In this document: positions 853-61,131 of the stretch, piece by piece
How the letters are laid out: each line of letters starts with the position of its first letter
How positions within the stretch are numbered: the first letter of the stretch is position 1
From: a virus
Direction: 5' to 3' (one strand)
DNA length: 64,000 nt
IMG/VR virus record: IMGVR_UViG_3300032516_000007
Location: 51,042-115,041 of that record
The notes under the pieces: model-generated
What the model was told of the DNA's origin: nothing
The model's input: only the letters and a program-made list of their open reading frames with translations
Database searches by the model: none
Position numbers and translations under genes: made by a program

Positions 853-1066
853 GCTTCAGATCCCTGACGATGTTCCTCTTGAGGAAGTCGTCAAGGCTCT
901 AGAGTCTGCCGCACGGGGGCTTCGCCAGGAACAGGAGGCGAAGCCCCTGTCAGGTATTGAAGATCGGAATCCAGCATCCAAGCACATGATGGAGTTCATC
1001 GATAGTTCCTACTTGACCATGGTGGATAGCTTGGCAAAGGAGATTGGGAAGGTTCTAGAATCATGA
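836..1066 (+). CDS. hypothetical protein
   Basis: Track ORF 821..1066; ATG 836 is the more likely start; ATGA overlap with the next ORF. Confidence 0.6.
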   Translation: MSQKVRLQIPDDVPLEEVVKALESAARGLRQEQEAKPLSGIEDRNPASKHMMEFIDSSYLTMVDSLAKEIGKVLES

Positions 1067-1236
1067 TCAGGAAGTTGCCATTGCGTCCCATCATGAAGTC
1101 CAAGCTCACCTCTGATGGTGAGCGGGTACTTCAGATTCTCCAGAGGGAATATCAGATGGAGCGTGAGGCGGCGGTTCGTTTGATGAGAGATGGCGGGGCC
1201 ATGTTGGCCCTGGCTATTGTGACTCGGAGTCGATGA
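1063..1236 (+). CDS. small hypothetical protein (57 aa)
   Basis: MIRKLPLRPIMKSKL...TRSR*; exactly fills the gap with ATGA overlaps at both ends; below the track size cut-off. Confidence 0.6.
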   Translation: MIRKLPLRPIMKSKLTSDGERVLQILQREYQMEREAAVRLMRDGGAMLALAIVTRSR

Positions 1237-1958
1237 TGTTTCTTTTCGTAGCTATTCACAAAAGTATCTATCCTGAGAGTTTGTTCATCAGGAAGGGAGA
1301 AGAGGAGGGAACTCTTAACCTGCGTGTTTCCAAACCTCAGAAGGTAGCCACACCCCCAAAGGTTAAGCAGCCTCGTGCTCCGACTGTGGGTGTTCCCTCT
1401 CAGGAAGTTCAGAAGCCATCAGCATCCCATCTGGAGAAGGTGTCAACGCCTCACCATCAGGCTGCCCAAGCTGAAGCTCTCATGAGGATGTCAACTCATG
1501 AGTACCAACGAACGGGACGTATGCAACATGCTTTGAAGGCACAGCGTTCCCAGGCGACTCTAGATCATTTTGCTTCCCAAGGTGTTGTACCAACACCCCA
1601 GCATCATGCTGATTGGGTTGATCACTATGGGGAGCATTCAGATAAATATGCAGGATCAAAAGTTCCTGTTATGTCCCGGTCCCGGTGGCACAAGATTTCT
1701 GGTGGGATTGAGTTTTCAGGACATGAACACGAACAGAAGCCAGCTTGGACAGAAGCTCAGCTACAGGCGGCTACTGCTCCTAAGCCTGAACCCCTACCCG
1801 CTTCTGATATTGGATTTGAGAGACCTGAGAAGGTATCTCGTCCGGAGGTTCAGGAAACCATTGGGTACATGAAGAAGATTCACAGTTTCAAGAAGAGTCT
1901 CATCAATGCTTTGCTGTTAAAGGCATTGAACCTGAGAAGGAGCATTTTGAGTTATTGA
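1233..1958 (+). CDS. putative internal head protein, His/Pro-rich
   Basis: 241 aa; N-terminal SLFIRK|G and C-terminal FKK|S and LLK|A motifs. Confidence 0.55.
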   Translation: MMFLFVAIHKSIYPESLFIRKGEEEGTLNLRVSKPQKVATPPKVKQPRAPTVGVPSQEVQKPSASHLEKVSTPHHQAAQAEALMRMSTHEYQRTGRMQHALKAQRSQATLDHFASQGVVPTPQHHADWVDHYGEHSDKYAGSKVPVMSRSRWHKISGGIEFSGHEHEQKPAWTEAQLQAATAPKPEPLPASDIGFERPEKVSRPEVQETIGYMKKIHSFKKSLINALLLKALNLRRSILSY

Positions 1959-1971
1959 ACAGGAGTGGAAC

Positions 1972-2607
1972 ATGAGACCCGACATGATTAGCCCCCGACG
2001 GCTTCGTCCTGCTAGTGACGGTTCACACAGTGAGCCCTTGTTTCGGATGACCAGGGAAGATCCCCATCGAGTGCTCAAAGGGATTGTGATTCCCCAGACA
2101 GTGCGTGGTCAGGTCAATGGAGTGATGCCTGGGGCGTCGGCTCCCCCGAAACCTCAGCCCTCTCTGTGGGTGATGAGGAAAGCGGATCCATCTCAACAGG
2201 AGATGATCCCTGGGGGTCTGGCTTCTGGGAAGGCTGATACAGCTTTCGATCCTGAAGCTCTCAAGGTGGGGATGAAGGTTGAGCTGGAGCATTCAGGCAA
2301 CGCCAAGCTGGCTCGGGAGATTGCCAAAGATCATCTGACCGAGGACCCTGATTACTACAAGAAGCTGGCCAAGATGGAAGCCAAGAAGGCTATGGGTGGG
2401 TTGGTGACGAAGTCCAAGGAAATGGAGGGCAAGAAGAGAAGTTGGATGCCCCCCACCGAGTACAGTCCCGAAGCCTATGGGAAGCCTCCTCATCCAGAGG
2501 GTCATGGGTTCATCAGTGGTGAGCCAATCGAGAAGATCAAGGAAAGGTTGGCAAAGTTGCAACCTCACCGTCCGAAGGGTACAGGGCAATTCAACCTCGA
2601 CGATTAG
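1972..2607 (+). CDS. DUF5661-like domain protein
   Basis: FDPEALKVGMKVELEH...AREIAKDHLTEDPDYYKKLAKME matches the DUF5661 pattern; AGGAG RBS. Confidence 0.75.
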   Translation: MRPDMISPRRLRPASDGSHSEPLFRMTREDPHRVLKGIVIPQTVRGQVNGVMPGASAPPKPQPSLWVMRKADPSQQEMIPGGLASGKADTAFDPEALKVGMKVELEHSGNAKLAREIAKDHLTEDPDYYKKLAKMEAKKAMGGLVTKSKEMEGKKRSWMPPTEYSPEAYGKPPHPEGHGFISGEPIEKIKERLAKLQPHRPKGTGQFNLDD

Positions 2608-2624
2608 GATGTTGGTTCTAGAAC

Positions 2625-7647: not shown

Positions 7648-7652
7648 ATTGA

Positions 7653-8408
7653 ATGAAACGTCCAATGAAAGAATCGGCTTACGATTTAACTGATCTTGTT
7701 GATCAGGATAAATCTGGTGATATTCACTATTCTACTGATGGTACTAGAACCATGAATCATGAAGGGATGATTGATTGGGATCAAAGTACCGAAGCGATGG
7801 ACCTTGGTGACAGTCATCCAGAGGACAAAGTTGTTTTCGATTACGATGGCAATGTGATTCATGATCCTGAAATGGAGGGTCAGGTAGATGGTGGAGACGA
7901 GGAGCCGGAAGCTTCACCAGAAGAGGAGCTTCCTGGTGATTCTAGAACCACGGGAGAACCCACCAAGGAGCCTGCCATGGGAACTGAATCTCCAAATCCC
8001 CAGCCTACTCAACCGTTAATGGGGATAGCCGCTCAGGGGGGCCAAGAGGAGCCTCAGGAAGCTCAGGGGGAGCCCCAAGGGGGCCAGGAGACAACTCAGG
8101 GGGCTCAGGAAGAAGAGCAGACCCAGGAGGGTCAGGAGCCATCCCAGGAGGGTTCTGAGGAGCAGGGAGACCTTCTCTCAGTGGATGACCCTGCCCAGGC
8201 CCAGCAGCTCCTCCAGAACGCCGATAAGATGGACCGGCCTCACATGCTTCAGGTGGCTAAACTCATCTGGGGGGATGACTACGAGTTTGAGGACTGGATG
8301 ACGGACGATTACGTGCGAGCAGACCTGAAGGGGTCACTCGAGGATGTTCTCGAGAGCCATGAAGAGGGAGTTGCTCCTGTCGAAGGGGAAGACGAGGAAG
8401 AGGAGTAG
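7653..8408 (+). CDS. highly acidic hypothetical protein
   Basis: 251 aa, D/E/Q-rich low complexity with a folded-looking C-terminal segment. Confidence 0.7.
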   Translation: MKRPMKESAYDLTDLVDQDKSGDIHYSTDGTRTMNHEGMIDWDQSTEAMDLGDSHPEDKVVFDYDGNVIHDPEMEGQVDGGDEEPEASPEEELPGDSRTTGEPTKEPAMGTESPNPQPTQPLMGIAAQGGQEEPQEAQGEPQGGQETTQGAQEEEQTQEGQEPSQEGSEEQGDLLSVDDPAQAQQLLQNADKMDRPHMLQVAKLIWGDDYEFEDWMTDDYVRADLKGSLEDVLESHEEGVAPVEGEDEEEE

Positions 8409-8415: not shown

Positions 8416-11400
8416 ATGATGCTTCCTCTGTGGATCGATCTTGTCAAGGCACGCAAAGGTGAGCGTGTTGGGGGAAAGTATATCCACAGATGGTGGAACT
8501 CTGGTCAGAACAAGTGGAACTACAAGTATTCTGATAAGCCTCACCCCCAGCATGGAATTCCCTATGTGGCTACTTCCAGCCACACGATTGAGGTTCACCC
8601 ATCAGTGAAATCTGAAGCCTCACCAGAAGAGGCGTTCCACCAGTCGGCCAGGGCAGAGCTGAAGCATGGGGAGGAGCAGAAGGCCACATTCAAAAACCCC
8701 AGTGGGGAGGTTCTGTTCACGGTCCACGTCAAGCCTGGGCTCGACAATCCTATCCATGTTGCCCCTCCTGGAACCCAATCAGCTCGGGGGGCTCAGAGGA
8801 TGGGCAGTTTGCGCCGATTCGAGAATTGGTTTCGTCGGCGTATGACCACACAGACAGTTTATGATGCTCATGGTGATCCTTGGTTTGATGTGCGGCTTCG
8901 TGGTCAGAGTGGTGAGTATCATCGTGAGGGTAAGATTCTGAATCCCAGCGATCGTTTGTCAGTTCGCTACTACCCTGACAGTCCCTACAATCCCTATCCG
9001 AAAGAAGAGACAGCCTGGGTTCCAGGCCCATTTCGTCAGGGCAGCATGAATGAGTGGGTCAGAGGGGAACATCGAAAACAAAGAGTATCTGGGCAGCGTG
9101 TGAAACCTGCCAAAGTTTTTTCAAAGGATGCAAAGCGGCCAGCCACCACGATGCTGGAGCAGGGGACCATCACTTGGAAGCAGGTTTTTCAACCTAAGAA
9201 GGGAAGGGGTGGAAAGTGGTGGAAACGAGTTGCGACGAATCTTAGGAGTAAAGATCAATTCTATTCTCGCATTATTCAGGAGCACTTTGGGTTGATTGTG
9301 AATCAGGCTATTCGTCAGTTGAAGATCTACTACATCACTGACAAAGATGGTCATCCAGATCGAAGAGCAGTGGCTCAGCTACTTGGATACTATGGGGGAC
9401 CTGGACGCAAGATGAAGGTTCAGGTTGATTCGGATTCTCCTACTCATCGGGCTGTTGAGAGAGCAGTCAATTCTTATGATCCTGAGAAGGGATGGAGATT
9501 CAATACCTACTTGGGTCACTGTGTGTGGTGGGAGCAATTCAAAGAGACCAAGAGGATTCTGGATCAGATAACTGCCCATAGAAAGCTGATCTCTAGAACT
9601 TCAGACAATGCTGGAAACATTCTGGATGAGATTAGTCTGACCCAGGCTGCTCCCGGTCATGAAGCGATCATTGGGGCTGGGGTTCATTACCAGACAGCCG
9701 AGGAGCACGTATCCCAAGATCAGGAAGTAGTTCAGAATTGGTTGAATCGGCAAGAGGATAAGTTGTCACGCTACGTTGTGGCTGAAGATGATCCTGATCG
9801 TCAGATGATAGCGTTCAATGCACTTCAGCATCTTGATGCAGTCAAGAACATCCAGCAGGCCATGGCTTTTGTGGTTCACTATCAGTCCTCGGGTGGTGAT
9901 GGGTTCGCAGAGCCATTAGAGTCTCCTGAGGATCGCTCAGTGGAGATTGCAACGCCTAGGCTGACCAAGCAGGAGAAGCTTAACTGGGTGAATCTTGTCA
10001 CTGAGCACCCAACTCTCACGAATCGAGAGAGGCATGCCCTCCTGGTGCTGGCTCCTACTGGTGATCTAACTGACATGGTTCCGTTCGATGAAGTTGCATC
10101 GAAACTAAACAAAGATCATCCAAAGGAGTTCCCGAGGGAGCCTAGGGTGAATGAGGTGGTGGACCTTTTCTTGGATGCCTACACGAAACTGGTTGGCTCA
10201 CCGGAGTTTGAAGCCATGCAGAGGAAGCTGTTCGCTGTTGCCAAGGCTATTGGTATCCTGAGCAAGGGGATCAAACGGGGAGGGAAGGCTCAGGACTATG
10301 AGTACCTTCGCAGAGAGGGCCTGCCTGGTGGCTACAAGTATTTCTACAAGGAGCCTGGAACCGAAAACATCATTCGGGGCACAAATGCTCCAGTGGATCA
10401 TCCTCACCACGATGCGTCCCTTGGGGTGTCTCAAAAGCATCCTCGTGAGCCTGACCCCGTGAAAGACCCTCAGTATTTTGATCCTCGTAATGGCAGAAAA
10501 CTCCACCGAGCTGCCCCTGAACATGCTGAGTGGAACAAGAACTACGGTCTGGAGCGTCCCCTTTCTGCGTGGGTAGCAAAGTGGCCCAAGGCAGATCCGA
10601 ACAATCCTGATCCCGAATACGCCTACTACCATTCAGATCAGGAAGGTAGAGGGGATCTGAAGTTCCACGTTAGCAATCGTCATTTCGCTGTGCAGTTGCC
10701 CAAGGTGAGGAAACTCTATAGTACCTTGATGAAGAGTAAGGAATTCTCAAGTCGAGTTCTGGGATTGATGATCTCTCTTCTGGATCAGGTGTATATGCGT
10801 CCTGGTAAGAAACAGCATGAGGAGAAGACTGGACATGTTGGGCTGGTTACATTGAAAGTATCCAACGTTGTGATGAAGGGTAATGTAGCTACTTTCTCTT
10901 ATGTGGGTAAGAGGGGAGTGAACATTGTTCACAGTATCACTCTAGATCATCCAACTGCAAAGATCATGAAGGATCTGATCAAAGCTCCCGGTAAATCACC
11001 CAAGGACTATTTGTTCTCTGTTCCGGTCCAAGTTGGTAGGAGAGTCAAATTCCGGGATGTTGGTTACAACAAGTTGTCCAGGACCCTTGATGAGGCGGTT
11101 GGTGTCACTCCCAAGCAATTCAGGATCTATCATGGGACAGAGGCGTTCTCGAGGACGTTTGAGCAGCTCCTCGAGGGGGTCAAGGGAAGAGTAACCCCCA
11201 AGGTTCTAGAAGCACTCACTGAGCAGTCGGCCCTCGAGGTGGCAAGGATGCTGGATCATTATGTTGGCAAGGGGGCAGAACAGAAACTTCACAGTCAGAC
11301 GGCTTTGAAGAGCTATATTGATCCTGTAGTGGTGAGGTCTCTTTATCTCAATGCCCTTACTCCAGATGTGAGCAAGGCATTCAAGCTTCAGGGAACTACA

Positions 11401-11832: not shown

Positions 11833-12824
11833 TCACCACAACTTCAGTTGGAGAGAAGTTTCAGAAGCCAATCCGAAGATTTGGCAGGTACGTTGCTCTG
11901 ACTCCAAGTCATCTACATCGGAAGTTGAAGAATGGCCACTACTCAATCATCTCTGCTGGTGCGAATAGATCTGATCCCAAAGAGAAAGATTTGCCCTGGG
12001 ATCATCCCATGTTCAAGGAGCGACACGAGAAGCTGAGGCAAGATTTGATCCATCATGGGCTTGATCACACAGAAGGGATGGGTCACTACGAGGGGAAAGA
12101 GCATTCGTTTGTTGTGTACCATGGTCCAGGTGGGAGGACTCCACCGGATGTTTCTGGAACCAAATCCTTTATGGTGCATCACGAACATCCCAGTGAGCAT
12201 GCAACAGTCAGGGACCTTGGGAAAAAGTACAATCAGCAGAGTGTGATTCATTCCTTGGGTGGTAAGCATGAACTTCATTTTGTGACAGGTGATCATGCAG
12301 GGACTCACCACAAGGGAGTGGGCCACGAGATCAAGCCCCATGCCGAAGACTACTATACTGAGATCAAACACAAGGAACCTCGCTCAACTAAGTTCTCTCT
12401 GAACTTAAATTGGGGTACCCATCATCCAGAGCATGAGGCAGTGCTGAAGGCTATGGTTCCAGAATCAGGAGAGGAAGGGGATGGGGAAGAAGAAGGGAGT
12501 TCTCACATCCACCACGTGACTGCTGATCCTCCCGATCAGTTCCCTCATGAGATAGAGTTTAACCGATGGTTGCACTCTCATCCAATCCATGAGAGTGATC
12601 ATGAGTGGAATTCAGTCAAGACAATGGGGGGCTTCAAAGATCTCCACATCCCAAGTCCCGAAGGGGAAGATGATGAGCAATCGTCTGCCGAGTCTGATCG
12701 TGCTGGATTCCAAGGTGGTGAACCTGATCAAGGGTCTGATGGGGAGCCCGAGTCCGCAGAGCCTGAGGACTACTCCTACCTCGACTCTTACCAGCATGGA
12801 GATCGAAAGCCTGCTGAAAAGTGA
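11829..12824 (+). CDS. SAM lyase (T3 SAMase)/DUF3293-like protein with acidic tail
   Basis: IISA..R, RHEKLRQDL, GHYEGKEHSFVV and LGKKYNQQSVI follow the T3 SAMase pattern. Confidence 0.55.
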   Translation: MITTTSVGEKFQKPIRRFGRYVALTPSHLHRKLKNGHYSIISAGANRSDPKEKDLPWDHPMFKERHEKLRQDLIHHGLDHTEGMGHYEGKEHSFVVYHGPGGRTPPDVSGTKSFMVHHEHPSEHATVRDLGKKYNQQSVIHSLGGKHELHFVTGDHAGTHHKGVGHEIKPHAEDYYTEIKHKEPRSTKFSLNLNWGTHHPEHEAVLKAMVPESGEEGDGEEEGSSHIHHVTADPPDQFPHEIEFNRWLHSHPIHESDHEWNSVKTMGGFKDLHIPSPEGEDDEQSSAESDRAGFQGGEPDQGSDGEPESAEPEDYSYLDSYQHGDRKPAEK

Positions 12825-18808: not shown

Positions 18809-18837
18809 TTGACACTTGATTCTAGAACCAGTAGTTT
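18809..18837 (+). promoter_or_regulatory. sigma70-type promoter with TTCTAGAA in the spacer
   Basis: TTGACA-17 nt-TAGTTT, intergenic, upstream of the protease gene. Confidence 0.6.
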
Positions 18838-22383: not shown

Positions 22384-22968
22384 ATGGATTGCATTGTTTG
22401 TGGGAAACCAGTTCAGATTGTCGGAGCAGATACATGTAGCACCCGTTGCATGCTTCGACCTAGGGGAAATGCAGGTGAGAAGAAAGGACTGGCACCCAGT
22501 TCTGTTTTTTCGATCATGGGGAAGCTGACTCAGGCGTCTCTTAGGCAGCCCCCACTAGAATCGGAGGTTCCAATGCTGAAGGTAGCTCACCCTTGGATCA
22601 AGAATCGTAACGTCATTGAGGGGGAGACGGTCTTCTCGTTCAATGGGGATGGAATCGCTGTGGTGAAGGATCTTGGGAATGCTCGCGTGGATCTTCAGCG
22701 GTTGATGAAGAAACCAACGAGTAAGTTCTCCATTCTTGAGGACCCGAGGGAAGTTCCCAAGGTTGAAGTTCCTGTTCTCAAGGTTGAGGCTCCCAAAGTT
22801 CCCGTTTCCAAGATCGAAGTTCCCTCTACCGAGATCGAAGCTCCTGCTTCCGAGGTGTTCACTTCGACGGTTCTAGAATTAACAGAGCCAGAGGAGGAAA
22901 CCACATCGGAGGTTGAGGACAAGGCAACCAAACGAACCCCCACCAAGAAGAAGAGTGGCGGCAAGTAA
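22384..22968 (+). CDS. hypothetical protein with (K/E)(V/I)E(V/A)P repeats
   Basis: True start may be ATG 22573 (GGAGG RBS). Confidence 0.6.
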   Translation: MDCIVCGKPVQIVGADTCSTRCMLRPRGNAGEKKGLAPSSVFSIMGKLTQASLRQPPLESEVPMLKVAHPWIKNRNVIEGETVFSFNGDGIAVVKDLGNARVDLQRLMKKPTSKFSILEDPREVPKVEVPVLKVEAPKVPVSKIEVPSTEIEAPASEVFTSTVLELTEPEEETTSEVEDKATKRTPTKKKSGGK

Positions 22969-34175: not shown

Positions 34176-34204
34176 TAGCCGTGGTTCTAGAACTGACATA
34201 TAAT
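34176..34204 (+). promoter_or_regulatory. promoter with TTCTAGAA in the spacer
   Basis: TAGCCG-17 nt (TGGTTCTAGAACTGACA)-TATAAT, intergenic. Confidence 0.55.
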
Positions 34205-40699: not shown

Positions 40700-40729
40700 T
40701 TGACAGTGGTTCTAGAACTAACGTAGACT
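40700..40729 (+). promoter_or_regulatory. sigma70-type promoter with TTCTAGAA in the spacer
   Basis: TTGACA-18 nt-TAGACT upstream of the tail tube gene. Confidence 0.65.
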
Positions 40730-42922: not shown

Positions 42923-43220
42923 GGCTATCCAAAGTCAGACGCTTCTAGAACTACTGACTTCGTACTGGGAGGATTACTACGAGGAACACAGGCTCGAAGC
43001 CAGTCGAGATGAGAAGGGTGAGGTCACTTTTGGTACTGGTGATCCTTACATCGATAAGTGGGAACAAGAGATAGCTATGGGTCTCGAACCTGATCTTCTG
43101 GAGGACTTGCCATCCTGGCATCGCGATAAAGCAAACCCCAAAGAAGAGAAATCAGAAGATCAGAGTGATGTCTCCAAGGATGGCTTCAAGGACGACTACA
43201 GCCGGTTGGCCTCTGGTTGA
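42780..43220 (+). CDS. tail assembly chaperone T-like frame (probable frameshift extension)
   Basis: +1 frame overlapping the previous ORF; LRRWVEDKFKLPWTH...TLLELL..YWEDYY; start coordinate approximate. Confidence 0.55.
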   Translation, partial: HLPPLSEEPLSLFKAARLIAAARVKDPGLLDVLRRWVEDKFKLPWTHEAIQSQTLLELLTSYWEDYYEEHRLEASRDEKGEVTFGTGDPYIDKWEQEIAMGLEPDLLEDLPSWHRDKANPKEEKSEDQSDVSKDGFKDDYSRLASG

Positions 43221-49813: not shown

Positions 49814-51699
49814 TGCCTCCTCGTGATCTCATTGCAAGGTCCACAACTTCATTCCCAGACCGTAGGTTCTGGTCGGGGCAGGTGGAGTACACCACCAGAA
49901 TATCGGCCATGTACTCCATCGGGATCATTGATGTCAAAACGTTTGAGTTTTGGATATGCAAGATTAACCCATCCGTGAAGGGCTTATCTCGAGCTGTTTA
50001 TCAGTTCACTACTCCACCTCAGAGCATTGAGACTGTAGAGCAGGCAGCAACGACGATTGTCCCGACACAGGGGGGTGGGAAGTTTGTCGAGAGCCAGGGA
50101 AATCTGTTCAAGGACGTTAGAATCTCAGGCACAGTAGGATTTCGGCCAAACATTCCGTCAAAGGAGTTGTTCCCTGGTTTGGCTAAAGCTGGGGGTCCAT
50201 CGATTGGTACACCTACGTCATTTCTTCCAGACTTCTTGACCAAGGATAATAGGGGTCTTGATCCAAAAGAGGTTACCGGGTTTGATGAGATGATGTTCTT
50301 GAGGAACATTTTTAGGGCTTATTTTGATATCAAAAGTAGTGATGTTGATGCCAATCGTGTAGCACTAGTTTGGCTATATGATAAGGAGAGTGAAGCCTAT
50401 GTAGTGGAGCCAATCTCCTTTACTACTAACAGGGACAAAGGAAACCCATTAGGTTGGACCTACAATATCCAGCTTCGAACTCTATATAAGTTGGATGTTG
50501 TCCGTCCCTATGAAACAGATTCAGTGAACCTTTTCTCAGCTATTGGTAATGCTCTTAATATGCTTGGATCGATTGTCAATGGTATCGTTAGGGCTCTCAA
50601 GACAATTGCTAATTTCATGGATTATCTAAAGAACTTTCCAGCGAATCTTATTCAATCAGTTTTCTCTGGATGGACTGATATCCTTGGTGGGATTGCAGCA
50701 ATCCGTACTGCTGGAGGTGGATTTGATGATTATGTTACAGAGTCTATAGTTCGCACTATGAAATCTCAGACAACGCAACTCCTTTCTGCTCTCGATGACA
50801 AATACAATCAGCAGCAGCAACCGGCATTTGGCCATAGTGTTCCCTACATGATGGAAGGGGAACTCGGATTGGTTCGGCATAGCCTGAGGCAACTTGATCG
50901 GTTTGCCACAGCGATTCTGACCAACGATGGGCTCTGGAAAGAGAACAAGAACATCCAGGTCTCGGATTACAGTCGATCCTATTTGACGGAGACCGGAGAG
51001 GCTTCACCCACAGCGGGATCGCCTCTGAATCCAACCAACATCAACATGCCAGATACGGCTGTTGAGCAAGAAGTGACAGGTGGGGACACTATTCGCACTT
51101 TGGCTCTGAAGTACCTGGGGGATGAGGCACAGTGGAAGAAGCTGGCACTCATGAACAACCTGAAGCCTCCGTACATTTCGGCTGTGGGGGGTGATGGGGT
51201 TCTAAAACCAGGAGGTACCATTCTCATCCCTCGGACCACTGCTTCAACAGTGGCACTGTCTGTTTCTAGAACCGTGAATCCGGATGCTTCCTCTGAAGCG
51301 TTGCGCCCAATGATGAAGAGATATGGACGTGACTTGAGATTGCTAGAAGCTGGGGGTGAGTTGAGGGACTTCACAACAACATCAGGTGGGGACATCGATG
51401 TTGTTGAGGGTATCGACAACGTGATTCAGGCAATCAAGATCAAGTTCTCTACGGAGGTGGGCGAGCTTCCAACCCATCCTAGTTTTGGTGCCAAGTATTC
51501 AGTGGGAACGAAACTTGGGATGGCAACAGTCCAAGAGTTTGCTCTCAACACCAGACGAACATTCTTTCAAGACCCACGAATTGAAGAGATCAACTCTATG
51601 GAGATCTTTGCAGTTGGAGATCAGCTTTTCAACAAGACTCGCCTCAAGTTGATTGGAGCTGATGCAGAGATTCCCTTCACGTTCTCAGTGAGGAGATAG
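49813..51699 (+). CDS. baseplate protein: tube-initiator-like + LysM + gp25-like
   Basis: VRISGTVGF; GDTIRTLALKYLGD...WKKLALMNNL..PY (LysM); GIDNVIQAI...GELPTHPSFG...DPRI (gp25-like). Confidence 0.75.
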   Translation: MPPRDLIARSTTSFPDRRFWSGQVEYTTRISAMYSIGIIDVKTFEFWICKINPSVKGLSRAVYQFTTPPQSIETVEQAATTIVPTQGGGKFVESQGNLFKDVRISGTVGFRPNIPSKELFPGLAKAGGPSIGTPTSFLPDFLTKDNRGLDPKEVTGFDEMMFLRNIFRAYFDIKSSDVDANRVALVWLYDKESEAYVVEPISFTTNRDKGNPLGWTYNIQLRTLYKLDVVRPYETDSVNLFSAIGNALNMLGSIVNGIVRALKTIANFMDYLKNFPANLIQSVFSGWTDILGGIAAIRTAGGGFDDYVTESIVRTMKSQTTQLLSALDDKYNQQQQPAFGHSVPYMMEGELGLVRHSLRQLDRFATAILTNDGLWKENKNIQVSDYSRSYLTETGEASPTAGSPLNPTNINMPDTAVEQEVTGGDTIRTLALKYLGDEAQWKKLALMNNLKPPYISAVGGDGVLKPGGTILIPRTTASTVALSVSRTVNPDASSEALRPMMKRYGRDLRLLEAGGELRDFTTTSGGDIDVVEGIDNVIQAIKIKFSTEVGELPTHPSFGAKYSVGTKLGMATVQEFALNTRRTFFQDPRIEEINSMEIFAVGDQLFNKTRLKLIGADAEIPFTFSVRR

Positions 51700-51701: not shown

Positions 51702-53522
51702 ATGGCCTTTGTACCTCGCTCATATGAGCAGATTCTCAATGACATGATTGCTCATGTGAAAGCTACGACTACCCTCACTGACTTCACGGTAGGCTCCAAC
51801 ATCAGAACGATCTTGGAAGCCGCAGCCCTGGAGGATGACGAGCAGTATTATCAGTTGGTGCAGTTGCTTGATGCCTTCAGGATTGCCACGGGGACTGGAG
51901 CTGATCTGGATGAGAGAGCGGCTGACCTGAACCTGGAAAGGTTGGGCACCAAAGAGGCATATGGATCAGCCTCCTTTCGGGATGGTGGTCTCACTACGAC
52001 CGAGGCAGCCTTCAATGTCCCACTTGGGGCAACGATCCTGAAGGTCTTGGATAGTAGTGATTTTTCGATCACATATCCTTACAACATCCGAGTGGGAGAG
52101 GACACTCCCCAGGTTGAGGATGTCATAGTCTCCAACAACAATACGGCTTTTAACACCCTCACGATCACTCCCCTGATCAATAACCACTTTGTTGGGGAAC
52201 GAGTGTCCCACATCACGGGATCAGACAAGACGATTCCATCCAACATCCAAATCCAAACCAAGGCAACCACCACCACTTCTCCGATCAAGTTCATGACGGT
52301 GGAGCCTGCCTACCTCCCCGCAGGGGACTACGAATCTCATCCCGTGGACATCACGGCTGTTGGAGCAGGGAGTGATGGGAACATCGCTGCTGGTCGGATT
52401 ATCCAATTCACTTCATCTCCCCCCTTTACGGGATGCGAGGTTTCCAATCCAACAGCAACCACAGGGGGACGTGACATAGAGACCGACACAGAATTTCGAA
52501 GTCGTCTACTGAGGAGGTACGATGAACTGTCCCGAGGGGTTCCGTCGGCGATTGAGCAGATGGTGGTTGGGGTGGAGGACACCAAGACTGGAAAGAGAAT
52601 TGTCACAGCAAAGCTGAAGGAGAACTTCATTACTGGAGATCATGTTCTCTATGTGGATGATGGAACCGGGTTTATCCCCACTGCAACGATCTTTGCACAG
52701 ACGACGTTTGCTTCTTTGACGTTGCCAGGTGTTTCGGCCATCCCAGCAGTTGATGTCACATCGTTTCCATCCAGTGGTTACATTCTTCTCAGTGCTGGAA
52801 TTCCATCTGTTGCAGAGCTGGTTTACTACTCATCCAAGACGGACGCAACCAACACGTTGAATCTGGATGTAGCCACATCTTTTGGCCATAGCAGCACCGA
52901 TGAGGTGGTTCTGGTTGACATTCTGGGGGCGGCTGAAGAGGGTCAGAACTACTTCCGGTTGCACAACTATCCGGTCAAACTGAGTAGCTTCGAAATCTAT
53001 GATGATCGAAGTGGCGAGTTTGTGTTGAAGACGAATGGTACAGACTTCTTTCTCAACCTCACCAATGGTGAGATTCAGTTTGTCGGATCAGGATTGCCTG
53101 CTGGGACAATCGTGCTGGCTTCCTACACTTTCTACACAGGATTGATCCAGAGAGCACAAAGGGTTCTCAATGGAGATCCAAATAATCGAACCAACTACCC
53201 AGGTGTGGTGGCTGGTGGAATCATCATCCGTGTGGATACTCCGACGTTGCGTGAGATTCCAGTGATGATTTCGATCTCGGTGGAGGTGGGGTTCGACGAG
53301 TTGGATGTGTCACCTCAGGTTGAACAAGCAATCATAAGTTACATTGATGGGAGGGGCATTGGGGAAAACATCATCCTCGCAGCTATCATTGAAAGGGTGA
53401 TGGGGATCATTGGAGTTTCCAACGCGATAATTCAGGAGCCCCTGTCTGATGTGGTGATTCTAGAAGATGAGCTTCCTGTTTCCTACGATTCCAATGGGAA
53501 CAGCCTGGTCACGGTGCTCTGA
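51702..53522 (+). CDS. baseplate J-like wedge protein
   Basis: LTDFTVGSNIRTILEA, GADLDERA, AGSDGNI, TGGRDIETDTEFRSR. Confidence 0.85.
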   Translation: MAFVPRSYEQILNDMIAHVKATTTLTDFTVGSNIRTILEAAALEDDEQYYQLVQLLDAFRIATGTGADLDERAADLNLERLGTKEAYGSASFRDGGLTTTEAAFNVPLGATILKVLDSSDFSITYPYNIRVGEDTPQVEDVIVSNNNTAFNTLTITPLINNHFVGERVSHITGSDKTIPSNIQIQTKATTTTSPIKFMTVEPAYLPAGDYESHPVDITAVGAGSDGNIAAGRIIQFTSSPPFTGCEVSNPTATTGGRDIETDTEFRSRLLRRYDELSRGVPSAIEQMVVGVEDTKTGKRIVTAKLKENFITGDHVLYVDDGTGFIPTATIFAQTTFASLTLPGVSAIPAVDVTSFPSSGYILLSAGIPSVAELVYYSSKTDATNTLNLDVATSFGHSSTDEVVLVDILGAAEEGQNYFRLHNYPVKLSSFEIYDDRSGEFVLKTNGTDFFLNLTNGEIQFVGSGLPAGTIVLASYTFYTGLIQRAQRVLNGDPNNRTNYPGVVAGGIIIRVDTPTLREIPVMISISVEVGFDELDVSPQVEQAIISYIDGRGIGENIILAAIIERVMGIIGVSNAIIQEPLSDVVILEDELPVSYDSNGNSLVTVL

Positions 53523-56500
53523 TGGCTGACATCAAATCTTCCATTCGAGAGGTTAGAGATCAGTTCTTTCTTGATCGAGCTGTCAGTAAATACCTCTCGA
53601 ATGTGACTTCCAACTTGAGCTTCGAACGTCCTGTACTTTGGTTCAGTGATGACAGTTTGTGGCGAGCTGTCATTCGTCGCATCAGTCTTGACTACCGACA
53701 GATTGCCAACCTATTCTATGATCTTCTAACAGAGATCTTTGGTCCACAGAAGACAGTGGCTACTGTTCTGATCTCTGATGCAGTGATTCTGGATGAGGTA
53801 GTTTCCATTGCTCCTTACCAGCAACAGCATCGTCACGCGATCCCTGTCACTTTCAAAACCCTTCCTCAACGGGGAATCCTGATCATCGATGAGGGGTTGG
53901 CCACAGAAGAAACGGTGCAGTACAGTTTTCGAGATCCACGGACAGGTGTGATCAATCTACTGGCTGAGCTAACCCAGGCACACACAGCGGTTGGAACAAA
54001 TGCTTCTGGGTACGTCCTCTCTGATGTTCCTTCTGCTCTCGGGACAACCACCATTCCGCTTACCCACACGAATGATTTCCCAACTTCAGGATTTCCATAT
54101 CCAATTCTCATCGCTCCAGGAACCTCTCAGGAAGAGGTGACCCTCCTGACGGGTAATGACCCTGTGACCAGCGTTCTGACTGTGGCCAGCTTGGCCAACG
54201 ATCAGTACGGGATGCGAGAAACCCCCACTACATCGAAGCTGGTGTCAATCACGGGAAGCGACGCACATGTGATCAAAATCCAGGACAGCAACCAGTTCCC
54301 AGAGGAGGGCTGGATCAAGGTTCAACAGGATGTGACTGGGGGACTGCCTTCGGAGGTAGTCGAGGTTATTGACAACGATGTCGCAACTGGGACTCTCACT
54401 CTCAGAACAAAGCTGGTCGGCTCGTACACGTTGGGCTCCGTCACAGTCTCGGTTCTAGAACCAAGAACCTCTGTGCAACTTGCCCAGGTGCAGGTGAAGG
54501 GCATTGGGTGGGATGTCTTTCAGACAGAACAGAATGTGCTGAAGCTGTACATTCCCCTTAACCTCTCCCGGAACAGACTTCAGGACGTTTCGTTCCTTCA
54601 TGATCTAGCTTTGCTGCCTCCTCCCACGACGACCCTTGCCTCGTCAGTTTCAATTGGAGATGTAACTCTTGAGGCTGCGGTGGGATCAACCGAGAGGTTT
54701 CCTAAGTCTGGGATCATGATCATCAATTCTGGGGGTGGGAGTGAGGAGAAGGTTAGCTACACAAGGGTAGATGCTCAGTCGTCCACGAAGCTCTATGCGA
54801 CTGACATTGGGGGAACAATCCCAGTCGGGACCACGGAACTATTTGTTGAGGATATCACACCCATTGAGGCATTCGATAAGATCAACAAAGACAAGAAACT
54901 TGTCCTGTCACGAGACCAGGGGAGCCCCAACGAAGAGGTGGTCTACTACGAATCGTTGGACGGTGAGAATAACAAGATCACCCTCACGATTGCGACTCTT
55001 CAGACACATCTTCCAGGGAGTCTAGTTACTCCCATCAGTGGAGATATTTTCTACCTCACCACACCGGCAGTGAATGCCCACAGTATTGGTGAGTCTCTGT
55101 CTCTTCAGCAGATGATTTATGCTGGAACAGGAACTCAGGCTACAGGTAAGATCACTGTCCCCGCTGGGGTAGATATGTCGGACGGTGATTTCTTCACCTT
55201 GCCCAATGGGATCAATAAACCATTTACGTTTGAGTTTGATAACGATGCGACTCTGGGCTACGTTGGGAGAATTCCTGTCACCTTCGTTGGAACAGAAACA
55301 GCCAACCAAATTCGAGATTTGATCATTGCTGCTGTCAACGGAACTTTGATCGACATCACTGCCTCGATTGGGGGTCCAGCTTGGGTAGCCCTTACTCATG
55401 ACTACAAAGGGAAGATCGGGAATCGTCCCATAAAGTGGTCAGTCAACTCCCCAAACTTTACTGCCCTAGGAATGTCAGACGGAACCGATCCTTTGTGGGA
55501 TGGGAAGATCTTTACTCCTGTTGATCATTTGTTCCAGGGTCACTTCCTGTACAGTCCGGGTTCTCAGGCTCCCAATACTGTAAGGACAACTCTCGAATCG
55601 AATGTTGCGGGTCCCCAGCTACTGGAGGTGACCCAGCATGTGACCAGGACCACGCTGGAGGTCGCCACCGCAAACTTCTTTGACGCAACTGGGGAATTCA
55701 GTGTGACAGTTCGAGGGGGCGGTAACTCAGAGACTCTCGATGTTCAAGGGATCACTCTCCGAGGTGCTGGGCCAGTCACAGTGACCAGCAACACTCCTTC
55801 AGGTTCCTATGTGATTCCTCTGACTGGAGCAGGATTGCTTCCAGCTCCTCCTGCGGGTGCTCCCTATGGTTACAGGATCATCATCCATCGAAATGGAGTT
55901 CGCCAAGAGGTTGTGGTGGTGGTCTCCATTGCTGGGGGATCTTGCACCTTGGAGTCTCCTACCACAGTCAATCATCTAACAGGTGATAGTGTCGAGTTGA
56001 TGGCTGATGTGATCAAGTTGAGTCAGCCGCTAACCTACGATCATGATGGTCGTATTCCCTGGAGTAGCCGCCTGAATGTAACTCCCGGTCCTTTGACAAG
56101 CGTGAAGCGGGTCAGCCTTGTTTATGAGGAACGGAAATGGATTGAGGTTGCCTCCCTCACGGGATTCCCACCATTGGGATCAAAGATCATTCTCAATTTT
56201 GGGAATGATAAACTTCCAATAGAGTCTGGATTTCAAACTGATCTTTCTGCTGGAAGTGGGATTTTGATCTTGGATGACACTTCCAAGTTTCCAACTTCAG
56301 GATACCCATACCTGGTGGAGATCGATTCTGATGCCGGATCAATTGCAAGTTTCTGGAAAAAAAGAAACGTGAGAGAGACCATTGATGTTACTCTGAATGA
56401 TCCCTTGACGAATACGATGACCTTGGCGACTCCCTTGAAAGAATCTCATCTGACAGGAAGTTTAGTGAGGTACAAGCCCGGTCCCATGGTAGTTTTCCCC

Positions 56501-56743: not shown

Positions 56744-59700
56744 ATGCCGAATTCCGTTCAGATCCAAGCGAGTGAGCGTGTTGATGTTGTTGATCTCAAG
56801 GCATTGACTGAGTACCCTCGTGAACTGACCAAGCTCGTCACAGAGCAAGTTGTTCTGGACCGTCAGTCCAGAATTCTGCGTGGGTTCCGTGTGCAGCTCA
56901 CAGATCAGGATTACACACCTGGACGAATTGTGGTCCACAGTGGCTCAGCCCTTGATCGAGATGGGCAGATTCTCATCAATGAAACCCAATCGAATGCTAC
57001 TCGAACCATCACGCTGGAAGGAGCTACCACCACCTTCTACGTGGAGCTGGAATTCGTTGAGAGCGATGCAGAGGTGGATTCTCGGGCCTTCTGGGATTCT
57101 ACGGTAGATCAGGGATTGGATATCCCCTCTGGGGATGAGCTTCCTGACGGGCAGGAGTTCAACAACAATATCGCAACTAGGAAAACTTCGGACTGGAGAA
57201 TTGTTCAGCCGATCTCTACGACTAGTTTCGAAAGGGACCTTGATCCTAGCTCCACCAAAGTTCCTCTTATCAAGCTCATCACTGATGTTTCCAACAAGAT
57301 CACTGCCGGGGCAAACCCAGATTTGACTACGGAGAAAGCTGCCACCACTCTTCTGGAGCAAATCTCTGCCAATAAGATCAGAGTCCAGAACTCTAGCTAC
57401 ATGCCTCTGGTTGGAAATAGCATCAAGGTGAGTGAAGGAGAGGCAGTTGAGGAGACTGTCACCATTGGTAGTGTAGATCGTAAGTCTGGTGTGATTGGAG
57501 TTTCCATTCTATCCAACACCCACACTCCAGGAGCTATTGTTCGGGCAGCTACTTTCACAGATCCAGACTTCATCACAGAAGCTGATTACGGAAGGTATCA
57601 TCGTCCAGAAGTGATTGCTGGATCTGGAAACGTTATTGACTACCGGGATCGAGTTTTTCAGGGTGATGAGATTCATGGTGGCATTCTATCTCATGGTCAT
57701 GGTTCCATAGATCAGAGATCAAGTACCAATCTTCAGTCTCTCCAGGACTACGTAGATTTCCTGGCAGCACAAATCCAAGAGATGAAGTGGGGAGTCACTG
57801 ATCCTTACATTTCTGATGTGTCCACTAGTCGTGTGCCCCCAGGAGTGGGATCTACTCTGCCCACAACCCCAAGGCACTTTGATCGAGCTGGGAGTCTCCT
57901 GGCGGGCAGAGTGGCTACCATAACAGTGGGGGATGGGGTCAGTTCTTTTGGAGATCTGAATGGGATAACAGAAGTTGCCCTTCAGGCGGCTCATGATGCT
58001 CTCCCTGGATCGGGGCGTATTTTCCTGAAGCGAGGTTCCTATAAGCTCACAGCGGATTTGATGTGGACCAATACCGCTGACGTGGTTCTAGAAGGAGAGA
58101 GTGGAACGATAATTGAGTTGGAAGGGGGATCAATTCATATCACTACCACGGGGTCAGTGACCCTCAAGAATTTGACAATCAGAGAGGGAACGTCCACCCC
58201 TTCCAACATTGGTATTCTTGTGGACACATCGAACCCTATTGGGTTCCATATGGACAATGTTCTAATGTATGATGCAGCGTTTAGGTTGAACGCTGTTCTT
58301 CCTTCTACATCTTCCTTTTTCCGAGTTAATTTCTGGGGTATCACTGCGAGTATGGCGGCAATCCCATTGTTTGCTATTACAGGAACCGCGGGAACTATTG
58401 CTGGAACTTTTCGAGAGTGTGATTTCCTACATTTGTCGATGGTATCTCTTTCATGTTCTTTGATTGATTGTGTTAATGGTGCTCCAACTGCGGCCATGCT
58501 TGTGGCCAATTTTGTTGATTGTAGTTTCACCAGTGTTGGGATTAACTTCGAGAGTGTTCATTTGGGAGCTACTTCCAATGTAGTAAGTTTTGATAGGTGC
58601 ATATTTACATCATTCTCAACACTATGTCATGTTAGAGCCACAGGTGGAAGCAACATCAAGTTTATTAACTGTGTTGGCACTGATGCCAATGCTCAGTTTT
58701 TCCAGGGTATAGGTATAAATCATGTAGTGGTTGATGGTTATGTGAATAATAACATAGTATATTGGCCTGCGGTTGAGTTGTCTAATTGCAACTTTGGGAA
58801 GATCGTTAATTGCGATGTGATGATTGGGGCAGTTACATCCCTAACAGGATCAGCTTTCAGGTTGACCTTTACAGCAGTAGATGAATTCTCTGACTTCTTG
58901 ATCAGTGGCAATACCGTCACTGGTGATGTGCTTTTGGGATTTGGTAAGCCTACTGGAGTCATTTTTGACATCAATGGGGCTACACATTGCAGCGAAGTTC
59001 GAATCACTGACAATGTGTTTAATGCCTGTGAGACAGATATCTACTTTGCCAATTCAGGTTCGGCAGCTACGTATCGGGACATGGTGATCAAGGGTAATAA
59101 TTGCTTTGATCATGTTTCAGGTGGACTTTCTGTACACAAAATTGGAGTGTATTTTGGTCCAACCTCTACTCGGGATAACGTCATAATTAGCAATAATGTG
59201 TTTGCTGATATGCGCCCAGGAAGCACCGCTGTGATCACAGCAGGTGTTACTCGAGCGGCTGTGTGGGTGGCAGGGTCCAACAACACCAATTTCAAGATCT
59301 CTGAAAACGAGATCAAGAATCTTGGTGACAGTAGCTTCACCCTTGCTAACACATGTGGTATTTTTGTTCAGCGTGGATATCGATTCACGATCTCTGGAAA
59401 TCAGATTTATTGGGTAATAGGATCGGCTGCATTTGGCATCAGAATTAGTGATCAGTTAAATCAGTCTTCTATTGTTGGTAACACAATAAATGACATTAGT
59501 ACTGAACCAGGTGGTGGTTCTCTCCAGGAAGATTGCTATGGAATTTATGCAAAACATCTCACAGATGTTGGCATAAATGGCAATCAATTTACCAATATTC
59601 GCACAAATAGTGGCACCGGAAAGTGTGCAGCTATAGGGTGTCATGAGGCTACTTCTGCTTGGGTAAATGTCACAATTACAGGAAACAATTTTGTTCCATC

Positions 59701-60319
59701 TAATGCTTTGACATCTTTCTTCTACCATGCTGGACTAATACTAAGAAGATCTTGTGTTACTGGTAACACTTCTTCTGGTCAAAGTTATACCTTTTTCTTT
59801 TGTCAACTAGTTGCGGGAGGTACTTTTGACAACAATGCCATTACTGGAAATTCAGCATATGGTATGGAGCTTAGTGGTATTCTTGTAAACTGTGTTTCGG
59901 CTACTACACACTTAAATCTCGTAATTTCTGGTAATACATTGAACAATGTTAGTGGGGATAACATTGATGTGTCTGAGGTGGACAATGTTTCTGTTACTGG
60001 TAATGTTCTATGGGTTAATGCCGTTGCCTACACGAATATATATATGATTCATTGTTTGTATGCTATTTGCAGCAATAATGTTTGCCATGCAGCAGATCAT
60101 GCCAGTACGAAAAACATCCATATGTCCACTAATTGCAGATACTACAACATTACTGGTAATATATGTGATCTTGGTGGGGGGACTGCTGGAGTGACTATTG
60201 ATACTATTTCTTCTGCCGTAGTAGCCAGTGGGGAAGGAAGAATTCAGTACAATCTAGTTGACGATGCTATCTTCCCTAATGCTAGTGATGACATCATTGG
60301 AAATACACCCGCGTACTAA
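56744..60319 (+). CDS. tail spike/fibre with parallel beta-helix
   Basis: ITVGDGVSSFGDLNG..ALQAAHDALPGSGRIFLKRGSY then many I(S/T)GN repeats. Confidence 0.8.
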   Translation: MPNSVQIQASERVDVVDLKALTEYPRELTKLVTEQVVLDRQSRILRGFRVQLTDQDYTPGRIVVHSGSALDRDGQILINETQSNATRTITLEGATTTFYVELEFVESDAEVDSRAFWDSTVDQGLDIPSGDELPDGQEFNNNIATRKTSDWRIVQPISTTSFERDLDPSSTKVPLIKLITDVSNKITAGANPDLTTEKAATTLLEQISANKIRVQNSSYMPLVGNSIKVSEGEAVEETVTIGSVDRKSGVIGVSILSNTHTPGAIVRAATFTDPDFITEADYGRYHRPEVIAGSGNVIDYRDRVFQGDEIHGGILSHGHGSIDQRSSTNLQSLQDYVDFLAAQIQEMKWGVTDPYISDVSTSRVPPGVGSTLPTTPRHFDRAGSLLAGRVATITVGDGVSSFGDLNGITEVALQAAHDALPGSGRIFLKRGSYKLTADLMWTNTADVVLEGESGTIIELEGGSIHITTTGSVTLKNLTIREGTSTPSNIGILVDTSNPIGFHMDNVLMYDAAFRLNAVLPSTSSFFRVNFWGITASMAAIPLFAITGTAGTIAGTFRECDFLHLSMVSLSCSLIDCVNGAPTAAMLVANFVDCSFTSVGINFESVHLGATSNVVSFDRCIFTSFSTLCHVRATGGSNIKFINCVGTDANAQFFQGIGINHVVVDGYVNNNIVYWPAVELSNCNFGKIVNCDVMIGAVTSLTGSAFRLTFTAVDEFSDFLISGNTVTGDVLLGFGKPTGVIFDINGATHCSEVRITDNVFNACETDIYFANSGSAATYRDMVIKGNNCFDHVSGGLSVHKIGVYFGPTSTRDNVIISNNVFADMRPGSTAVITAGVTRAAVWVAGSNNTNFKISENEIKNLGDSSFTLANTCGIFVQRGYRFTISGNQIYWVIGSAAFGIRISDQLNQSSIVGNTINDISTEPGGGSLQEDCYGIYAKHLTDVGINGNQFTNIRTNSGTGKCAAIGCHEATSAWVNVTITGNNFVPSNALTSFFYHAGLILRRSCVTGNTSSGQSYTFFFCQLVAGGTFDNNAITGNSAYGMELSGILVNCVSATTHLNLVISGNTLNNVSGDNIDVSEVDNVSVTGNVLWVNAVAYTNIYMIHCLYAICSNNVCHAADHASTKNIHMSTNCRYYNITGNICDLGGGTAGVTIDTISSAVVASGEGRIQYNLVDDAIFPNASDDIIGNTPAY

Positions 60320-60328
60320 GGAGATATC

Positions 60329-60499
60329 ATGTTCACCTTTCCACCAAAGGTTCCTGATAGACTAAAGAACAAGATTACTGTGGAGGTAGTGGATGAGAAT
60401 ACCATCAAGGTAAAACTCAAAGATGGAACGGTTCTTCAAACCGTAACCAAAGCAGAGTACGAAGCTGCTTTCAAGTACCCAACTAAAAGCCAAGGATAG
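60329..60499 (+). CDS. small hypothetical protein (56 aa)
   Basis: AAGGAG RBS; MFTFPPKVPDRLK...; below the track cut-off. Confidence 0.55.
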   Translation: MFTFPPKVPDRLKNKITVEVVDENTIKVKLKDGTVLQTVTKAEYEAAFKYPTKSQG

Positions 60500-60511
60500 A
60501 GGAGAAATCCC

Positions 60512-61099
60512 ATGTTGAAGCACATCAAGCGTTCGTTGCTGGTCCTTGCCCTTCTGGCACCATTGACGGTGGCCATCCCTCAGCAGGCTTTCTCTGCTGA
60601 TGGGGCCTCTGCTGCCAAGGTGGCTGAGAAAGCTGCCCCCAAGGTTGCAGTGGCTACTCCAGCCTCACAGCCTGTGGTTGCCCCCACAGGGGCCTCCACG
60701 GCTGTTGTTCCGAAGACTCTTGAACCAACCCAGCTCGAGGCAAAGTGGTGGCAGTTGCTTCTCAAGCATCTCCTTGAGTTGGTCTTTGTCATTCTGGGCA
60801 TCCTGGCCACAGGTTTCGTGACGGTGCTGATGAAGAAGTATGGCTTCGAGAGCCAGACTGCCCAGGTGAATGATGTTCTAGAACGGGCTCGGGGGTACGC
60901 TGAGCAGCTCTCAATCAAGAAGCTCAAGTTGGATGGGAAGCCTGTTGAACCGGCTCAGAAGATGGAACTAGCCATTCAGTTTGCCCAGAAGCTTGCTGAA
61001 GAGTACAAACTTGGAGACAAGGGCAAGGTGTGGTGGGAGGGGAAGATCGAGAGCTGGATGGGGATGGAGAAGAAGAACGGAACGACTCCTCCAGTCTAG
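60512..61099 (+). CDS. membrane protein, LL-H holin-like with N-terminal signal peptide
   Basis: Signal peptide, A/P linker, transmembrane helix, RARGYAEQ..QKMELAIQF. Confidence 0.5.
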   Translation: MLKHIKRSLLVLALLAPLTVAIPQQAFSADGASAAKVAEKAAPKVAVATPASQPVVAPTGASTAVVPKTLEPTQLEAKWWQLLLKHLLELVFVILGILATGFVTVLMKKYGFESQTAQVNDVLERARGYAEQLSIKKLKLDGKPVEPAQKMELAIQFAQKLAEEYKLGDKGKVWWEGKIESWMGMEKKNGTTPPV

Positions 61100-61131
61100 G
61101 CTGGATTCTAGAATCAGATCGAAGGTGAACC

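Follow-up and report, generated by a model that had tools for sequence, protein, structure and literature searches.

Short inverted repeats scattered in many copies over a phage genome have been described before, and the closest published case is that of the Cluster O mycobacteriophages. These phages, which are not obviously temperate and have no integrase or parAB, carry a 17-bp dyad repeat (5'-TGTTCGGNNNCCGAACA) that occurs 34 times in Corndog, in 14 cases between ORFs (PMC4351075, published in 2015). Most of the sites lie away from promoters, and the authors predicted a dimeric reader with a role other than transcription initiation (PMC4351075). Here we describe a dispersed palindrome, TTCTAGAA, in a 64,000-nucleotide stretch of viral DNA (hereafter the window), which spans bases 51042-115041 of the linear 115,041-bp contig IMGVR_UViG_3300032516_000007. 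The feature is real and strongly non-random, and it belongs with the dispersed phage dyad repeats already described. What it adds is a conserved promoter-spacer operator tied to a lineage-specific spread into coding DNA.

The likeness to the Cluster O repeat is close. Both are short inverted repeats with near-invariant half-sites and more than 30 copies per genome (36 exact cores here), and both occur genome-wide inside and between open reading frames (ORFs), with ~40% of the copies intergenic there and 13 intergenic against 23 coding here. However, the geometry is 7+3+7 in Cluster O and 6+2+6 here, the sequences differ, and the phages are unrelated, the one a Mycobacterium siphovirus and the other an uncultured myovirus with an SPO1-like capsid. 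Moreover, the two best promoters of our phage hold the site, those copies are conserved, and most relatives have promoter copies only.

Two further kinds of dispersed operator are instructive. In Cluster A phages a single repressor of the L5 gp71 type reads a promoter operator and ~20-30 dispersed stoperators, which are asymmetric, read by a monomer, oriented with transcription and found mostly in short intergenic gaps of temperate phages (PMC9283540, PMC6550527). Our repeat would resemble them in concept, as genome-wide control of transcription by one reader. Unlike stoperators, it has a perfect dyad core with symmetric flanks and lies mostly within genes, and Pfam scans of the ORFs of this ~68%-complete contig gave no integrase or Cro/CI-type domain. 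The KorB operators (OB) of plasmid RK2, the C1 operators of P1 and the sopC-type centromeres of N15 are also dispersed repeats of a palindromic or fixed sequence, with ~4-17 copies per 45-95 kb replicon, some at promoters and some far away. Their readers are ParB-family or C1 proteins, their replicons are plasmids or plasmid-prophages, and KorB and N15 combine global repression with partition. By contrast, there is no ParBc match among ~130 ORFs here.

The contig comes from an uncultured tailed phage with genes for a tail sheath and a major capsid protein; its G+C content is 51% and its ORFs are nearly all on the + strand. The closest named relatives of the capsid protein are those of SPO1/Herelle-type Bacillus myoviruses (~43% identity), and megablast of the contig against known phages gave no nucleotide match. 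IMG/VR holds dozens of uncultured relatives (capsid identity 59-85%), and a metagenome scan added relatives at 50-57% identity only.

The initial annotation had listed 17 copies of the palindrome in the window as a strong excess and proposed that it is a genome-wide binding site for a dimeric protein. All 17 positions are exact matches and the window holds no others, against 0.8 expected (dinucleotide shuffles 0.77 ± 0.80, maximum 4). Over the whole contig there are 36 copies where Markov models of order 0-3 predict 1.6-1.8, and no other 8-mer of the genome departs as far from expectation as TTCTAGAA (Poisson P ~3e-35). Codon usage does not explain this excess, because shuffling synonymous codons within genes (500 runs) leaves 1.33 ± 1.12 copies (maximum 7) against 25 observed. 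The 25 coding copies are those of our first gene call; a revised call gives 23 coding and 13 intergenic copies. By the first call, the coding copies fall into two frames, xTT-CTA-GAA (18) and xxT-TCT-AGA-A (7). CTA makes up 7.5% of leucine codons, yet CTA-GAA is used in 18 of 45 xTT-Leu-Glu contexts.

Copies are strongly concentrated between genes. Six of those in the window are intergenic, as initially annotated (2616, 18820, 30937, 34185, 40710 and 61106). Genome-wide, 13 of the 36 lie outside ORFs, in 5.3% of the DNA (binomial P 2e-8, revised call), and site density is tenfold higher there (2.1 per kb against 0.21 per kb in coding DNA). Coding copies show no concentration near gene ends. 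Spacing is near-random, at about one site per 3.2 kb, and we reject regular spacing (coefficient of variation 0.83; an 11.8-kb gap arises by chance 56% of the time).

The flanks noticed in the initial annotation are real, and extend the core to a 14-bp dyad with the consensus TGRTTCTAGAAYCA, or TGRTTC-TA-GAAYCA. Twelve sites match the 14-mer perfectly, 14 differ from it at one position and 20 at two, so that 46 sites lie within two mismatches where ~2 are expected in total. The half-sites TGRTTC and GAAYCA pair at a spacing of 2 bp only; they do so 17 times, around a centre of TA (12), TG (4) or CA (1). Fully flanked variants in the window include TGGTTCCAGAATCA with centre CA (12454..12467) and two sites with centre TG (26857-26870 and 37709-37722). 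Cores one transition away, TTCTGGAA/TTCCAGAA, are also frequent (32 against ~8) and carry the same TGR..YCA flanks. The full 14-mer is found at 8 of the 13 intergenic copies but at only 4 of the 23 coding copies (Fisher P 0.011). Importantly for what reads the site, the R and Y positions of the two flanks are complementary 13 times against 14.6 expected under independence, and the commonest perfect 14-mer, TGA..CCA (6 of 12), is not self-complementary there. The flanks thus vary independently, which suggests two half-sites read separately by a dimeric protein rather than a hairpin or cruciform.

The most informative copies lie at putative promoters. The head-operon promoter (18809..18837, + strand) is a consensus match with -35 TTGACA at 18809-18814, a 17-bp spacer and -10 TAGTTT at 18832-18837, and precedes the prohead protease, scaffold and capsid genes. 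Its spacer contains a perfect 14-mer (18817-18830, core 18820-18827). A second promoter (40700..40729, + strand; TTGACA-18-TAGACT, 10 of 12 consensus matches) holds a core at 40710-40717 in its spacer, upstream of a LAGLIDADG_2 homing-endonuclease gene (41079-41987). The + strand of the whole genome has three instances of TTGAC-N17..19-TAnnnT, and both intergenic ones carry the site in the spacer. As in a promoter operator, then, the site lies in or over the -35/-10 region and is kept at the orthologous promoter, going by consensus matches. The endonuclease gene itself (Pfam, 86 bits) is free-standing within the tail module and is absent from the related contigs G001-G004.

Other copies stand just upstream of a -10 element. 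A TAnnnT lies exactly 6 bp downstream of four sites (0.27 expected), at 30937 and 34185 of the window and at 37722 and 40297 of the genome. At the first of these (30934..30956, + strand) an intergenic perfect 14-mer, TGGTTCTAGAATCA (30934-30947), is followed by an extended -10 with TG at 30948-30949 and TATACT at 30951-30956, 6 bp from the core. At the second (34182..34204, + strand) the intergenic core (34185-34192) stands 6 bp before TATAAT (34199-34204) and precedes a virion structural gene (34225-35061). The copy at genome 41933 overlaps a presumptive -10. Two copies abut gene starts: that at 1053..1060 (14-mer AGGTTCTAGAATCA, one mismatch) occupies the last codons of ORF 821-1066 (GTT CTA GAA) and ends 2 nt ahead of the ATG of the next ORF (1063), where a ribosome-binding site is expected, and that at 2616..2623, in the gap that separates ORF 1972-2607 from ORF 2625-3533, leaves a single nucleotide before the start codon (ATG, 2625). 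The remaining intergenic copy in the window (61106..61113; 14-mer GGATTCTAGAATCA) separates ORFs 60512-61099 and 61132-62355. The site therefore has no fixed place relative to the -10 (N4, N6, overlapping, abutting starts), which suits a blocker rather than a precisely placed activator.

Comparison with relatives suggests which copies are old. In 891 kb of sequence from 64 related loci TTCTAGAA is no commoner than background, with 0.19 copies per 10 kb, whereas our contig has 3.1. All relatives keep the TTGACA-17-TAnnnT head promoter and its conserved leader. The full TTGACA-N5-TTCTAGAA-N4-TAG layout is kept in loci L128 and L134/L176, and spacers differing from the core by one or two bases occur in L131 (TTCTAGAC), L135 (GTCTAGAC), L121 (TTCCAGAA) and L126 (TTCTATAA). 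All of the motif-bearing head promoters fall within one capsid-protein clade that includes our phage (19 rows, SH-like approximate likelihood-ratio test 97, in a quick version of the tree), and relatives outside that clade have nothing like the motif in the head-promoter spacer. The capsid proteins of relatives with conserved promoter copies are 74-85% identical to ours. In L134/L176 and L121 a second copy lies 66 or 54 bp upstream of the head-promoter site, giving paired operators. The 32-kb contig G001 has three copies, two at the head promoter and one in a TTCTAGAA-N6-TATAAT arrangement syntenic to window 34185; in G001 and L128 the site is found at promoters only. Because relatives without the motif keep a self-sufficient head promoter, the motif appears to be an add-on, most simply the operator of a repressor.

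Abundance beyond the promoters is a different matter. The 10.7-kb locus L317 (59% G+C) has 3 copies against 0.04 expected, at positions that differ from those in our phage, a pattern that reads as site turnover under a shared reader. The 78-kb contig G003 has 10 copies, which lack the TGR..YCA flanks and in part reflect a general twofold excess of CTAGAA; G002 (76 kb) has one copy and G004 (44 kb) none. The strength of the trait thus varies within the clade. We also sought relative-specific palindromes as a sign of co-evolving specificity and found weak signals only (CGGTACCG and CCTCGAGG), without flank conservation. The L135 variant brings the site close to the operators of HutC/GntR regulators, such as the dre site of DasR (core TGGTCTAGACCA): outer TGGT..ACCA and central CTAG are shared, and L135 has its GTCTAGAC in the same head-promoter spacer. 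However, our site is 2 bp longer (TGGT-T-CTAG-A-ACCA), and no GntR/UTRA domain was detected in the contig. Beyond these relatives, an IMG/VR scan returned only lone chance matches to the exact 14-mer and no match to the 18-mer CTTGATTCTAGAACCAAG. A pattern of paired sites with a 58-bp gap returned mostly tandem protein repeats and giant-virus repeats, which we rejected as analogues.

Within genes, the site has been written into existing codons. Twelve coding sites could be aligned with homologues, and at these the relatives show either other codons for the same residues or other residues, and they do so without alignment gaps, so these sites are not insertions. At 42943..42950 (ORF 42717-43220, CTT CTA GAA) G002 encodes the same LLE as CTG CTG GAG, a case of synonymous recoding. 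Similarly, at 53458..53465 in the baseplate-J ORF (51702-53522) our ATT CTA GAA corresponds to ATC TTG GAG, also ILE, in G002. Elsewhere the residues differ: at 60876..60883 (ORF 60512-61099) VLE stands where G002 has ATC CTG GAG (ILE), at 46045..46052 (ORF 45489-47819) LLE where it has LAE, at 51264..51271 (ORF 49813-51699) VSR (GTT TCT AGA) where it has VPR, at 54453..54460 (ORF 53522-56734) VLE where it has LMR, and at 58086..58093 (ORF 56744-60319) VLE where it has TFE. At 11204..11211, in a topoisomerase IB-InPase ORF (8344-11832), GTT CTA GAA encodes VLE and the relatives have MLD, NLP, MLP or DLP, so that the gain here is lineage-specific and non-synonymous. The reverse is also seen: at the conserved R-T-(I/L)-L-E-A position of the baseplate-J protein, L317 and L319 have ATT/CTT CTA GAA and our phage has ATC TTG GAA. 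The window's other coding copies are a perfect 14-mer, TGATTCTAGAACCA, at 7937..7950 (ORF 7653-8408, frame GAT TCT AGA) and a site at 22871..22878 (ORF 22384-22968, GTT CTA GAA), 90 nt from the ORF end. On these alignments the intragenic copies are recent, lineage-specific gains whose positions turn over between lineages.

From the statistics, site anatomy, promoter placement, conservation pattern and recoding, which are direct observations, we infer protein binding, the dimeric state of the reader, repression and the role of the intragenic copies. On the resulting reading, to which we give roughly even odds, TGRTTC-TA-GAAYCA would be the operator of a homodimer, ancestral at late promoters, probably repressing, and multiplied genome-wide. 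The putative reader would be a sequence-specific homodimeric DNA-binding protein, probably phage-encoded. Its probably ancestral job would be at an operator lying between -35 and -10, or immediately before the -10, in structural and late promoters of the host sigma-70 type, where the bound dimer would exclude RNA polymerase and so repress. A lineage-specific multiplication would then have produced the 36 exact cores and ~10 near-sites, 23 of the exact cores having entered genes through recoding, some of it synonymous and some not, and the same protein would dock about every 3 kb along the genome, to form roadblocks or a silencing array or to do some other genome-wide job. The binding site for a dimeric protein proposed in the initial annotation is thus the best-supported account (dyad, half-site flanks, intergenic enrichment, promoter placement, promoter copies conserved in relatives). 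Of the functions it offered, transcription control alone finds positive evidence; neither packaging nor partition gains support, as 36 dispersed sites are unlike a pac site and no ParB was found in 115 kb.

Several points weigh against this reading. Promoter association applies to ~6-8 sites and not to the whole array; for ~28 of the 36 no promoter can be recognised, and most of the array is thus beyond the reach of transcription initiation, an objection that the Cluster O authors also raised (PMC4351075). Promoters were called as consensus matches only, and genes by an ORF heuristic in both the first and the revised call. No integrase or lysogeny module is seen, and there is therefore no obvious reason for genome-wide silencing. 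Pfam scans of ~130 ORFs (with PHROGs on a subset) yielded only two weak helix-turn-helix candidates for the reader, one of which could equally be a small terminase; the presence of these two in relatives does not cleanly track the motif. CheckV puts the completeness of the 115-kb contig at ~68%.

The two candidates are P0001 (222 aa, genome 29050-29718), with a sigma-r4/HTH_23-like helix-turn-helix, long helices and a homologue in G003, and P0002 (131 aa, genome 34019-34414), with a winged helix (TrmB/Crp-like, below threshold) and a C-terminal coiled coil. It is P0001 that could be the small terminase. P0002 has a homologue in motif-poor G002, and P0003, 99% identical to it, occurs on 9 contigs. 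A 183-aa ORF (genome 30979-31530), for which we found no annotation, lies between two identical 18-bp versions of the site. Annotation searches gave no decisive identity for any of the three. A set of head-module genes, the 1899-aa ORF among them, is common to our phage and G003 only, which is a lead at most with so few genomes compared. The same ~130 ORFs gave no DNA methyltransferase, Vsr, ParB, integrase, GntR/UTRA or Cro/CI-type domain. The reader could also be a host protein.

Could the array serve a purpose other than transcription? The strongest alternative, which we consider rather unlikely, is a docking array read by a protein of the ParB/KorB, Noc, SlmA or Cluster O type that would compact, mark, partition, replicate or protect phage DNA, its overlap with promoters being secondary. 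In its favour, 23 of the 36 sites are intragenic and unrelated to gene ends or promoters, they are spaced near-randomly over the whole genome at ~1 per 3.2 kb, they have been gained even at amino-acid cost, and what recurs between lineages is their density and not their position. Moreover, the Cluster O authors place the role of the same pattern outside transcription initiation (PMC4351075). However, the promoter copies are the only positionally conserved ones, G001 and L128 have the site at promoters alone, and the 115 kb yielded neither a ParB nor a gene of the SMC-loader or HU type.

A more speculative variant, improbable in our judgement, makes the array a self-mark, in which the 14-mer would be read about every 3 kb by a phage protein that may enter with the DNA out of an unusually rich head-cargo module; the same low odds attach to the idea that this protein organises, protects or selectively transcribes the incoming genome. 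An arms race over such a mark would raise the number of sites, so that genes would be rewritten even non-synonymously. Among the cargo-module genes is that of a giant SNF2-like ATPase, present in G000 and G003 and absent from motif-poor G001, G002 and G004.

Equally improbable is a positive promoter element, in which a phage-encoded activator, or a factor resembling sigma, would recognise TTCTAGAA at promoters of the class TTCTAGAA-N6-(-10). The four sites with TAnnnT exactly 6 bp downstream speak for it, and 34185, 30937 and genome 40297 lack a good -35 and could therefore need help. Yet a perfect dyad with symmetric flanks is unlike sigma elements, and the register changes from N4 at the head promoter to N6 elsewhere. 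A consensus -35 and a spacing of 17-18 bp are already present at both of the best promoters, and relatives use the same promoter motif-free. Furthermore, for 30 of the 36 sites neither strand shows a -10 at a fixed offset, so that such an element accounts for at most 6 of 36, and Pfam gave no sigma domain in the 1162-aa topoisomerase IB-InPase ORF (E<=0.001).

Slightly less probable again is DNA modification or biased repair. HIP1, the iterated palindromic octamer of cyanobacteria, is the model here: a methyltransferase or short-patch repair system acting on (T)TCTAGA(A) would drive near-matches towards the palindrome without any binding function. The 8-bp palindromic core does include TCTAGA, the most over-represented 6-bp palindrome of the genome (63 against 27.5 expected), the genome is under strong restriction pressure with nine 6-bp palindromes at zero, site positions turn over between lineages, and the one-transition neighbours are frequent. 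However, these presumed precursor words are enriched rather than depleted, and carry the same TGR..YCA flanks. Unlike HIP1-type words, the conserved information spans 14 bp, beyond the usual 4-8 bp of enzyme sites, and neither a methyltransferase domain nor a Vsr-like gene was found in 115 kb. Nor would modification or repair explain the tenfold intergenic enrichment, or the conserved spacer placement in relatives that lack a genome-wide excess.

A nucleic-acid structure is very improbable. With genes nearly all on the + strand every site is transcribed, and the 14-mer could form a DNA cruciform or a small RNA hairpin, its 5-bp stem closed by a CUAG loop, that would serve as a signal for processing or termination. 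We rejected both on the lack of flank covariation. TGA..CCA, half of the perfect 14-mers (6/12), cannot pair at R/Y; a hairpin would have a stem of just 5 bp, with no U-tract after it. Chance, protein repeats and codon or dicodon bias can be dismissed. Although 18 coding copies share the frame xTT-CTA-GAA, the synonymous-codon shuffle rejects the bias, CTA is a rare codon and 13 copies are intergenic. Unrelated TTCTAGAA-rich viral contigs exist, but they owe their copies to tandem protein repeats, whereas the genes that carry the site here are unrelated and free of repeats.

Several features of the surrounding sequence deserve mention. Between the head promoter and the start of the prohead-protease gene (window 18838-18912) lies a stable hairpin, GGGAG..CTCCC, followed by a U-run (-28.1 kcal/mol, z -3.5), with which an upstream CTCC-ACAAA-GGGAG segment could compete. 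This leader (ctccaNaaagggag ... ctcccttttt) is kept in nearly all relatives. It looks like a terminator or attenuator, which would imply antitermination control of the head operon.

Some 190 bp downstream of the TTCTAGAA-N6-TATACA at genome 37722 is a histone-like 68-aa gene (genome 37913-38119) with a weak DUF1931 match. It is one of two weak matches to this bacterial histone-fold family (E 0.002 and 0.0085), the other being an ORF in the window. The 1162-aa ORF (window 8344-11832) combines a topoisomerase IB core of the eukaryotic/poxvirus type (residues 773-973) with an InPase pyrophosphatase domain (residues 1016-1140). A variable cargo block is made up of the 1899-aa ORF (window 12589-18288) and the head-module ORFs 821-1066, 1233-1958, 6355-8408 and 18288-18530; these have homologues in G003 and none in G001, G002 and G004, whose contigs cover the flanking genes.

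Upstream of the window, the region at genome 30.4-32.2 kb (L197 10390-12180) contains a ~600-bp non-coding stretch dense in CATACATACA runs and CCCTACCC repeats. All 15 copies of CATACATA lie in this region (0.5 expected), and G003 is enriched in it too. Two TTCTAGAA stand 66 bp apart here, and the GC skew switches sharply from -0.3 to +0.3 at ~32.0 kb. The repeat-rich non-coding region at genome 31.5-33.2 kb gave no tRNA or Rfam match. The 30.4-32.2 kb region may be an origin or a regulatory hub.

Restriction-type palindromes are strongly avoided throughout the genome. Nine hexamers that should each occur 7-50 times are absent altogether (ACGCGT, AGCGCT, AGGCCT, ATTAAT, CTGCAG, GAGCTC, GGGCCC, GTGCAC and TTTAAA). 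GATC, by contrast, is in excess (1144 against 740 expected).

This case links the dispersed dyad repeats of phages to an ordinary promoter operator. It suggests a possible evolutionary path, from a clade-wide spacer operator at late promoters to a spread into coding DNA in a few lineages. It also supplies objects that can be cloned and tested, namely the two consensus promoters whose spacers contain the site, and a handful of candidate readers. Should the reader be found, it and its 14-bp operator would make a compact regulatory pair of repressor and site, and a way into the timing of late genes in uncultured SPO1-like phages.

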